A stretch of DNA of 41,585 nucleotides, taken from the NCBI GenBank assembly GCA_963668025.2, contig CAXXTH010000024.1:1-41585 (forward strand), written 5' to 3'. Below, one piece after another: positions 31,104 through 32,595 of the stretch. The position numbers and the translations under genes were made by a program. Under the pieces are notes generated by a model. It was not told the origin of the DNA. It made no database searches and saw only the letters and a list, made by a program, of their open reading frames with translations. Numbering within the stretch: the first letter of the stretch is position 1; every line of letters begins with the position of its first letter. The stretch is from Candidatus Hydrogenedentota bacterium (lineage in GTDB: Bacteria; Hydrogenedentota; Hydrogenedentia; Hydrogenedentales; SLHB01).

Positions 31104-31268
31104 ATGAAACACATGGAAACAATGACAGCAGTTAAAAGAGCGGAGCTCCCAGAACTTGCGGATTCGAGTAGTTGCAGTTGCAAGAGTTATACAAGCCAGA
31201 GCGAATGCGAAGCAGCCAGCACGTATTGCGGCTGCAGTTGGAACTCTAAAAATCAATGTGTTGGGTAA
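31104..31268 (+). CDS. 54-aa leader + six-Cys peptide A (putative RiPP precursor or disulfide mini-protein)
   Basis: MKHMETMTAVKRAELPELADSSSCSCKSYTSQSECEAASTYCGCSWNSKNQCVG; GAAAGGA RBS; clear paralog at 32440. Confidence 0.85.
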   Translation: MKHMETMTAVKRAELPELADSSSCSCKSYTSQSECEAASTYCGCSWNSKNQCVG

Positions 31269-31770
31269 TCTCTAGGTGAATCGAATAGGGGGGGCCTCGG
31301 GGTTCCCCCATGCTACAACACCGGCCAGCCGCCCCAGACTGCCAGTTACTGCTATGGAACTCCCCCTTCCAGATGTGCCAGTGTATCCTTCTCTCGATCT
31401 ACAAGAGATCTAGCTTTGGACCAATTTTTGAACCGCGAATAGACGCGAATGAACGCCAATAGATTTACCGCAGCACTTTGGCGGAATGAAGCTAGAGGTT
31501 TTGCCCGAACCCGTTTTTTTATGGCAGCGAAATCACCGTCAAAAAAATCTTGTCCCATCCTGTAAATCATGTCAAAAAAAATGCCTGCCCACCCAGTAAG
31601 TGTCCAAGGGCAGAACCGGGGGATCTCCAAAAGGAGTAGCCCCCTATTGCGCTATCCTGTATTCGGGCTAAATATATTATTGCATACACAAAACAAAACA
31701 TAGAAAGTCATGATATAATGAATTTAGTTGCGAAAATAATCGGGCTTGCTTATGAACGGAAAACGTGGAA

Positions 31771-32055
31771 ATGAGTAAGTATATCGAAAAAGATGGCCTT
31801 GTGACATTGGATGAAAGTGTTCCAGATTTGAGTGATATATGCGGAGCGTGTAAGCATAGGCATCTTTCTCCAAATCGCATGTGCTGTAATGCCTTTCCTG
31901 AAGGTATTCCGTTAGACATATGGGTTGGGAATCATACCCATCGGACTCCATATGAAGGCGATAATGGCATCATGTTTGAGAAAATGACTCAAGAAGAGTT
32001 AAAGGAAAGAATTGATTATCTGGATAAAAAATACGGTTTTATTCCAGATGAATAA
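31771..32055 (+). CDS. Small Cys/His protein, CxxCxH...CxAFPxGIP...H..P..GDxGI.FE type
   Basis: ICGACKH...[35 protein letters not shown]-rich codons; followed by its own terminator. Confidence 0.8.
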
Positions 32056-32074
32056 ATGAGATTATAGTTTTCTG

Positions 32075-32113
32075 AATCCCCGGTGGTGGTGGCCATCAGG
32101 GATTTTTGTTTTT
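32075..32113 (+). terminator. Rho-independent terminator
   Basis: AATCCCCGGTGGT-GGTG-GCCATCAGGGATT followed by TTTGTTTTT. Confidence 0.65.
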
Positions 32114-32152
32114 GAAGAGGCTCACGCGAAGGCACTAAGACGCAAAGGGGAG

Positions 32153-32226
32153 ATAGGGTTTGGGGTTTAGGGTTTTGGGTTTAGGGACCGGATTCTAGAC
32201 CCTATACCCTGAATCCTAGACCCTAT
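32153..32226. repeat. 7-bp periodic inverted repeat forming a 32-bp hairpin
   Basis: A (TAGGGTT)-like run is followed by a complementary (TAGACCC)-like run. Confidence 0.8.
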
Positions 32227-32439
32227 TGGTGTTGACGGGGTGGGGGACGGATGGAGAGACTGAGGGCATGATTGGGCGTATTTGACAGATGCAAAAATGC
32301 CGGCAGATTGTTATCTGATGACTCCTAGAGGTTGTTCATGTCACGGGCTTGCTACAAAAAACACTTGAACGATTTGATAAATATATGATAATAGAAAATA
32401 GTAAGATGGGTAAAAGCACGCCATGAAAGGAGCTACCCA

Positions 32440-32595
32440 ATGAGACACACAAGAGCTATCTCGGAAATGAACGAGGCGGATCTTCCAAAACTCGCAAGTT
32501 CAGAGTGTAGTTGTAAAGAATATGATACCGAGTCCGATTGCCTCACTAGCAACTGCGGTTGCGCGTGGGATGTGTCAAAAGGGACATGTTCCTAA
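32440..32595 (+). CDS. 51-aa leader + six-Cys peptide B (paralog of peptide A)
   Basis: MRHTRAISEMNEADLPKLASSECSCKEYDTESDCLTSNCGCAWDVSKGTCS; GAAAGGAG RBS. Confidence 0.85.
   Translation: MRHTRAISEMNEADLPKLASSECSCKEYDTESDCLTSNCGCAWDVSKGTCS

Follow-up and report, generated by a model that had tools for sequence, protein, structure and literature searches.

The contig CAXXTH010000024.1 (C24 in our numbering) of the Candidatus Hydrogenedentota bacterium assembly GCA_963668025.2 carries two short open reading frames (ORFs), here named genes A and B, and the question raised by this locus is what kind of product the two genes make. The initial annotation of this DNA regarded them as candidates for a new family of ribosomally synthesised peptides with modifications made after translation (RiPPs) or of disulfide peptides. 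The window, that is, the whole stretch of DNA that was analysed, is the entire contig of 41,585 bp, and it belongs to a genome of 6.15 Mb in 24 contigs with a GC content of 55.4% and a completeness of 93.75%. The answer that we tentatively prefer is that A and B may be cytoplasmic mini-proteins, clamped by metal and of foreign origin, which lie on a low-GC islet and whose N-terminal segment would dock a partner.

Both ORFs, of 54 and 51 amino acids (aa), are present on the forward strand with the leader and core motifs that had been claimed for them. In each, a hydrophilic N-terminal segment of about 20 residues with the motif M(K/R)H-x9-A(E/D)LPxLA is followed by an acidic core of about 32 residues with the pattern S-x-C-S-C-K-x-Y-x-(S/T)-(Q/E)-S-(E/D)-C-x6/x4-C-G-C-x-W-x5/x6-C, so that successive cysteines are separated by 1/8/6-or-4/1/7-or-8 residues. 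The proteins have a mass of approximately 5.5 kDa and net charges, counted from the sequence, of -1 and -4; cysteine makes up 11% of the peptide overall and 19% of the core. The BLASTP alignment of A with B spans 53 columns with an identity of 43% (E 5e-13), and 23 aligned columns are invariant, including all six cysteines and the K, Y, G and W which the initial annotation had listed as kept.

The comparison of synonymous and nonsynonymous change suggested by that annotation was carried out with the Nei-Gojobori method over 50 aligned codons. The proportions of synonymous and nonsynonymous differences (pS and pN) were 0.70 and 0.40, respectively, which correspond to a saturated synonymous distance (dS) of about 2.0 and a nonsynonymous distance (dN) of 0.57. 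Eleven of the 23 identical residues are encoded by different codons in the two genes, and three of these are serines switched between TCN and AGY codons. In the sense frame, 23 of 50 amino acids are identical and stops are absent, whereas the other five frames gave identities of 9-15 of 45-50 with 2-7 stops. A and B are true paralogues under protein-level constraint, and the earlier claim of selection on the protein stands. Because pN/pS is 0.56 in the N-terminal segment and in the core alike, the former is constrained equally to the latter. Judged from these patterns of substitution and from the matching signals described next, A and B are very probably real protein-coding genes.

The two genes also carry matching signals for expression (Table 1). 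The Shine-Dalgarno word GAAAGGA lies 8 nt before both start codons, as had been reported, and the word TATGATAAT, which was expected about 48-50 nt upstream, is common to both upstream regions at measured distances of 49 nt (A) and 47 nt (B) before the ATG. The consensus promoter scan did not list the site of A, because of its 15-nt spacer, and this site was read from the sequence. On both strands of the genome TATGATAAT occurs at 31 sites, six of which have a Shine-Dalgarno-like word and a start codon downstream. Among these six, only the sites of A and B precede a credible ORF at a matching distance; downstream of the other four are frames no longer than 1, 3 and 3 aa and, at a distance of 40 nt, a TTG frame of 52 aa that is unrelated. 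The hairpins found after the two genes are neither of them exceptional compared with shuffled sequences. The one after A (z -0.33) is weak evidence for a terminator, and the one after B, which is palindromic and was listed on the minus strand, is the only one with a U tract, a partial one. A structured 5' leader was considered and rejected: the 5' untranslated region folds worse than its shuffles in A (z +1.37) and shows mild stability in B (z -2.48), and no structure is common to the two. In the explanation that we prefer, A and B would be genuine and independently transcribed genes, as far as such predicted signals can indicate.

Table 1. Positions in the window of genes A and B, their predicted expression signals, the intervening gene and the surrounding islet
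Feature	Coordinates	Strand	Description
Low-GC islet	30950..33050 (~2.1 kb)	.	contains A, ORF94, B and REP-like repeats
Promoter-like site of A	31028..31054	+	TTGACA (31028-31033), 15-nt spacer, GATAAT inside TATGATAAT (31046-31054)
Shine-Dalgarno of A	31089..31095	+	GAAAGGA, 8 nt 5' of ATG
Gene A	31104..31268	+	54 aa; hydrophilic N-terminal segment (residues 1-20), six-Cys core (residues 21-54)
Hairpin after A	31288..31309	+	GC-rich, 9-bp stem, 20 nt 3' of stop, no U tract
ORF94	31771..32055	+	94 aa, Cys/His-rich (CxxCxHxH ... CC ... HxH); phage-associated family of unknown function
Promoter-like site of B	32365..32392	+	TTGAAC, 16 nt, GATAAT inside TATGATAAT (32384-32392); listed by consensus scan
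Shine-Dalgarno of B	32425..32431	+	GAAAGGA(G), 8 nt 5' of ATG
Gene B	32440..32595	+	51 aa; two-part build as in A
Hairpin after B	32620..32639	+	8 bp, then UUAUUGU, 25 nt 3' of stop; terminator-like

These results bear directly on the possibility that the pair is non-functional, that is, a segment that was duplicated and is non-coding or in decay, or else a pair of Cys-rich regulatory leader peptides of which the translation alone matters. We consider this very improbable. It would agree with the low-GC and repeat-rich surroundings, with the lack of relatives described below, and with the behaviour of the gene caller behind a collection of 15 billion proteins, which called ORF94, the gene between A and B, and called neither A nor B. 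It does not agree with the open sense frame set against the stops of the other frames, with six cysteines, W, Y, K and G and the three codon-switched serines being kept at saturated dS, or with the conservation of the Shine-Dalgarno and -10 words between the two genes. Moreover, no cysteine- or sulfur-related gene is located downstream.

The initial annotation spoke of a family, and a profile search of the genome and its relatives, as suggested there, was performed in six frames. In the own genome it returned A and B only, plus a chance match of 12.8 bits, and a six-frame search with the cysteine pattern as a regular expression gave four matches, namely A, B and two low-complexity runs. The same profile search of 61 relatives, of the class (133 genomes) and of the phylum (135 genomes), which is sensitive at the level of the phylum, yielded three non-self matches with E values of 0.003-0.008. 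Two of these contain internal stops, and on translation the cysteine pattern appears in none. Five genomes of other phyla gave no match, and two further phyla, represented by 401 genomes each, gave one match each (E 7-9e-4), both unconvincing on translation.

The larger collections gave the same picture. A HMMER profile of A and B found nothing at E<=0.001 among 1.84 billion protein representatives, a threshold which requires roughly 40 bits or more and which, with A and B themselves missing from the collection, limits sensitivity. A word-indexed protein search with A produced no candidate, and an exact-sequence look-up in the 15-billion-protein collection recovered ORF94 and neither A nor B. 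Scans with back-translated patterns confirmed none of 35 stretches in genome contigs, 296 in metagenome contigs and 182 in viral contigs. With degenerate core patterns, the rest of the six-Cys core adjoined the match in 0 of 27 metagenome, 0 of 24 genome-contig and 0 of 10 viral cases; the pattern for the N-terminal half required an AGY codon for one serine, and relatives using TCN would escape it. There was no tblastn match of A or B in 50,697 phage records, no usable match of B in the ESM Atlas, no PADLOC match, and in PHROGs only a match of A at E 0.35. Protein libraries are blind to A and B because gene callers skip these ORFs; in addition, relatives whose divergence greatly exceeds that between A and B would be overlooked by thresholds set for whole collections and by exact-pattern scans. 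As far as searched, A and B are an orphan pair confined to one genome, and the proposed family found no third member in any collection. If the proteins are made, they constitute a family of small proteins, specific to their lineage, which protein databases do not show.

The initial annotation also noted that the cysteine pattern recalls small disulfide modules such as PSI, and the resemblance to PSI proved to be measurable but weak. B matched the Pfam PSI model (PF01437) with an E value of 3.8e-4 and 21.2 bits, short of the gathering cut-off of 23.1 bits, its residues 24-51 aligning to positions 1-29 of the 52 in the model. The only other Pfam match of B at E<=10 was SWIM (E 6.6), and A had no Pfam match at that level. 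Throughout the genome B is the sole PSI match better than E 0.2; an above-cut-off match of 24.0 bits in the same scan was discounted as it reads through two stop codons. Sequence matches in the PDB, the best having E values of 0.13 (a CRISP domain) and 1.4, were rejected as noise.

AlphaFold2 models, which rest on the two-sequence alignment of A and B, gave block-mean confidence scores (pLDDT, predicted local distance difference test) of 71-88 for the core of A and 75-87 for that of B; the N-terminal segment of A scored about 50 and is predicted to be disordered, and the modelled core of A comprises a helix at residues 32-42 plus a hairpin. The models were compared with 48,161 chains by VIA-align, for which a Z of about 8 is the meaningful level and values of 2.2-2.8 lie in the range of common arrangements. 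The A model found seven chains with Z>=2. Six belong to receptors that carry PSI, namely two to plexin A2, two to MET and one each to RON and plexin A4, and the seventh is a VSG C-terminal domain; the best was plexin A2 PSI2, with Z 2.8 and a root-mean-square deviation (rmsd) of 1.2 Å over 30 residues. For the B model a single chain reached Z>=2, again plexin A2 PSI2 (Z 2.2, rmsd 1.5 Å over 30 residues). The convergence on PSI is consistent, yet the models may simply echo the sequence resemblance.

A full PSI module has eight cysteines forming four disulfides, and its characteristic motif is CGWC. The two peptides are like PSI (compared with PF01437 and with the structures of plexin A2 PSI2, 5L74, and MET PSI, 2UZX and 6GCU) in being predicted to form a small Cys-knot that combines a short helix and a hairpin of two strands, in having a C-G-(C/W)-x-W-type motif, here CGCxW, and in superposing, as models, at 0.8-1.5 Å over 28-30 residues with 20-32% identity. 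They differ from it in having six cysteines rather than eight and in covering the N-terminal half of the module alone; they are, moreover, free-standing bacterial proteins of 51-54 aa with no signal peptide, and even from stop to stop their frames measure only 67 and 66 aa, whereas PSI is a domain of large eukaryotic receptors. On score, on cysteine number and on extracellular context alike, A and B fall outside the PSI family. The models hint faintly that the peptides might look like, or work like, half a PSI knot; if made, they would be a rare bacterial look-alike of this module.

This likeness is the starting point of the main rival of our reading, according to which A and B are exported disulfide-rich peptides. 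The N-terminal segment would then serve as a leader or propeptide of a non-Sec kind, which some exporter or protease would cut off near LPxLA. The freed core of about 32 residues would fold into a PSI-like knot held by three disulfides (for instance, C3-C6 in addition to a CxC/CxC ladder) and act outside the cell as a signal or antagonist. We regard this as rather unlikely. The PSI match of B and its uniqueness in the genome argue for it, as do the best superpositions of both predicted cores on PSI domains, the even number of cysteines with all six invariant, and the hydrophilic N-terminal segment with a fixed motif constrained equally to the core, as in leader peptides. The match, however, is sub-threshold, partial and lacking for A, the Z values stay within the range of common arrangements, and the cores are acidic. 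Nor is a route of export apparent. The initial annotation had denied a Sec signal, and indeed the N-terminus of both peptides, as read from the sequence, is hydrophilic without a hydrophobic stretch; Tat and lipoprotein signals are likewise absent, and neither A nor B has a GG or GA cleavage site. No peptidase-containing ATP-binding transporter (PCAT) was found in the genome: the one match to C39, of 27 bits, lies in a 121-aa ORF that adjoins a PilB/GspE-type ATPase, and for this reason it was not taken for a PCAT.

The disulfide reading is further weakened by the search for disulfide-forming enzymes. DsbA, DsbB and VKOR had no match in the genome, while 8, 6 and 3 of 14 control genomes, respectively, were matched. 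Together with the presence of anSME (anaerobic sulfatase maturase) and AhbC, this suggests an anaerobe that lacks the standard oxidative protein-folding system. It seems improbable that this locus encodes the first PSI-like cystine-knot peptides to stand free in a prokaryote, with a new hydrophilic leader (A-E/D-L-P-x-L-A) and with export and cross-linking machinery unrelated to Sec, Dsb, PCAT or the known RiPP enzymes. If true, they would be the seed of a peptide class systematically missed by gene callers. The titles and opening parts of abstracts returned by a full-text literature search contained nothing on bacterial PSI-like peptides, and the same holds for those returned by a search on RiPPs and bacteriocins of Hydrogenedentes.

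Disulfide-rich class II bacteriocins and microcins with dedicated leaders, and leaderless peptides of the defensin-like kind, laterosporulin among them, offer a further comparison. Like A and B they are about 50 aa long, can form three disulfides and have no Sec signal. A and B differ in having no double-glycine site, no nearby PCAT or immunity gene, an acidic instead of a cationic core, and a host genome in which the Dsb system was not found; their net charges also set them apart from membrane-active bacteriocins.

The other half of the initial proposal was that A and B are RiPP precursors matured in trans. Their leader would be bound by a maturase encoded elsewhere, for instance one of four unassigned SPASM proteins, and the cysteines would be joined by thioether links (as in sacti- or ranthipeptides) or lanthionine links to Ser, Thr, Asp or Glu of the core. 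The leader-plus-core build and a core rich in Ser, Thr, Cys and acidic residues are what such a precursor would have. The genome also encodes seven SPASM radical SAM proteins, and two enzymes of the anaerobe type, anSME and AhbC, are among them. These two and a TIGR04133-family protein score above their cut-offs, and the other four (L034, L035, L036 and L038) fall under every curated NCBIfam cut-off. These three assignments are to non-peptide roles or to an uncharacterised family. No SPASM protein reaches the cut-off of PapB or of TIGR03974, the model of the SCIFF maturase; the best score for the latter was 79 bits against the required 425, and it was that of anSME.

The remaining evidence also goes against RiPP precursors. 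Neither A nor B matched any NCBIfam family, and thus any precursor model, at E<=10. In stating that radical SAM enzymes, peptidases and ATP-binding cassette (ABC) exporters are lacking from the window, the initial annotation is borne out by the 24 large ORFs scanned with Pfam, among which there is no maturase, protease or exporter. A PqqD-like RiPP recognition element (RRE) and YcaO had no match in the genome, while the controls were matched, and PCAT is missing as described above; LanC and the LanM dehydratase domain had no match either, but the controls were matched nowhere, which makes this last result uninformative. In addition, a folded domain accounts better than a template for modification for the compact models, predicted with confidence, and for the invariance of W, Y, G and K. 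We therefore doubt strongly that A and B are RiPP precursors, and that part of the proposal lacks support. The initial annotation was right to separate them from SCIFF. They resemble SCIFF and ranthipeptide precursors in length (about 50 aa), in the MKH or MRH start, in the hydrophilic leader and in having six cysteines in the C-terminal half. They differ in the spacing of the cysteines, in the absence of any NCBIfam match, including one to TIGR03973, the SCIFF precursor model, and in that no radical SAM gene adjoins them and the SCIFF maturase cut-off is unreached genome-wide. What stands of the initial proposal is thus a pair of real paralogues that are distinct from SCIFF and have a weak likeness to PSI.

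We return to the cytoplasmic, metal-clamped reading, which appears the most likely because the genome shows no export signal on these proteins and no disulfide-forming or RiPP machinery. A and B would be finished small proteins rather than precursors. The six invariant cysteines (CxC ... C ... CxC ... C), together with K, Y, G and W, would hold a compact PSI-like knot, the working form of which would stay in the cytoplasm with its cysteines clamped by metal, in one or two zinc or similar thiolate sites formed through the two CxC pairs. The cytoplasm is where such a product would be placed by default, and six conserved thiols there are most simply explained as metal ligands; two CxC pairs facing each other would be equally suited to a disulfide ladder of two rungs and to a clamp of the Zn(Cys)4 type. 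The conserved patch A-(E/D)-L-P-x-L-A of the N-terminal segment would provide a docking surface for a partner protein.

Small bacterial metallothioneins, such as SmtA/BmtA and mycobacterial MymT, offer a comparison for such a protein: they are about 50 aa long, without a signal, lineage-restricted and equipped with CxC motifs, and A and B are alike in these respects and would share their cytoplasmic location. The differences are that A and B have no Pfam metallothionein match, that their cysteine content is low, and that metallothioneins do not typically have conserved aromatic residues or a defined fold such as is predicted here.

Several observations count against the metal-clamped reading. 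The sole resemblance of A and B in both sequence and fold is to PSI, an extracellular, all-disulfide module, which at face value favours the exported disulfide-rich peptides. Neither protein matched a Pfam metallothionein or zinc-finger model at E<=10. In the structural comparison of the models, Foldseek found nothing in the PDB at E<=0.001 (the top row was the MET receptor, with 29 columns, 31% identity and E 4.4) and the Z values are far under the meaningful level. The four SPASM proteins under the cut-offs remain unassigned, and at the given completeness of the genome a missing Dsb or RiPP gene is no proof of absence. With two members, one genome and no partner genes or phenotype, the pair opens no long-standing question to test; its value lies in being an example of small cysteine-rich genes on mobile islets that are missed.

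The foreign origin of the islet was assessed from its composition and its gene content. The islet lies between the gene for AnmK (29748-30944) and a gene (33051-36149) whose product, of 1032 aa, has an N-terminus resembling a signal peptide. Its GC content is 0.39-0.52, compared with 0.554 genome-wide, and the GC content at third codon positions is 0.45 in A, 0.46 in B and 0.33 in ORF94, compared with 0.66 and 0.63 in the flanking genes. Because these values are far under those of the flanking genes, and because ORF94, which separates A from B, is a member of a phage protein family, the islet is probably of foreign origin. An attachment (att) site or a tRNA gene as a boundary of the islet was considered and dropped: there is no tRNA gene at its borders or anywhere else in the window, and convincing flanking repeats were not found at the borders.

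ORF94 matched phrog_33375 of PHROGs with an E value of 6.5e-7, and its look-alikes in the ESM Atlas (0.95-0.92) are clusters of hypothetical proteins with Uroviricota members. It is a singleton in the 15-billion-protein collection and had no tblastn match in the phage records mentioned above. Its homologues are distributed patchily: of the 134 other genomes in the phylum, 9 contain them. ORF94 was rejected as a fixed partner of A and B, as no A/B-like ORF occurs within approximately 1.8-3.2 kb around each match.

The islet also contains three short intergenic elements (31424-31466, 31503-31595 and 32148-32226) similar to repetitive extragenic palindromic (REP) sequences or miniature inverted-repeat transposable elements (MITEs), which are dispersed many-fold over the large contigs of the genome at 80-97% identity. 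In the third of these, a tandem array of TAGGGTTTGGGGTT precedes its CCCTA-type complement, and the Rfam matches of this element to microRNA (miRNA) and CRISPR-repeat models are spurious. In the region 30800-33100 as a whole, Rfam gave sub-threshold noise only, from a miRNA model and, on repeat DNA, a CRISPR repeat model.

Elsewhere in the window, four different transposase genes stand in a row at 16634-22037 (DDE_Tnp_1 with DDE_Tnp_1_assoc, DDE_3, DDE_5 and IS1595-type), an insertion-sequence pile-up located 9-14 kb upstream of the islet. The region 3383-14520 carries four large paralogous glycoside hydrolases of the GH42-like or GHL6 type (753, 761, 715 and 795 aa) and, after them, a protein of 506 aa whose C-terminal domain is URO-D-like; this run is flanked by a sodium:solute symporter and a LacI-type regulator. 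On the minus strand at 23908-28547, three genes that run in the same direction may form a dynamin-like module: one encodes a DUF6600 protein of 770 aa, another a GTPase of the dynamin/MMR_HSR1 type (590 aa) with a weak PADLOC match to LeoA (E 0.0014), and the third is an ORF of 155 aa that is unassigned. A second AnmK paralogue, 49% identical, is located at a contig edge (G000:C16:2-1075), and two copies are common among the genomes of the family. The closest AnmK in the family is just 54% identical to that of this genome, which is therefore an isolated lineage among the genomes compared.

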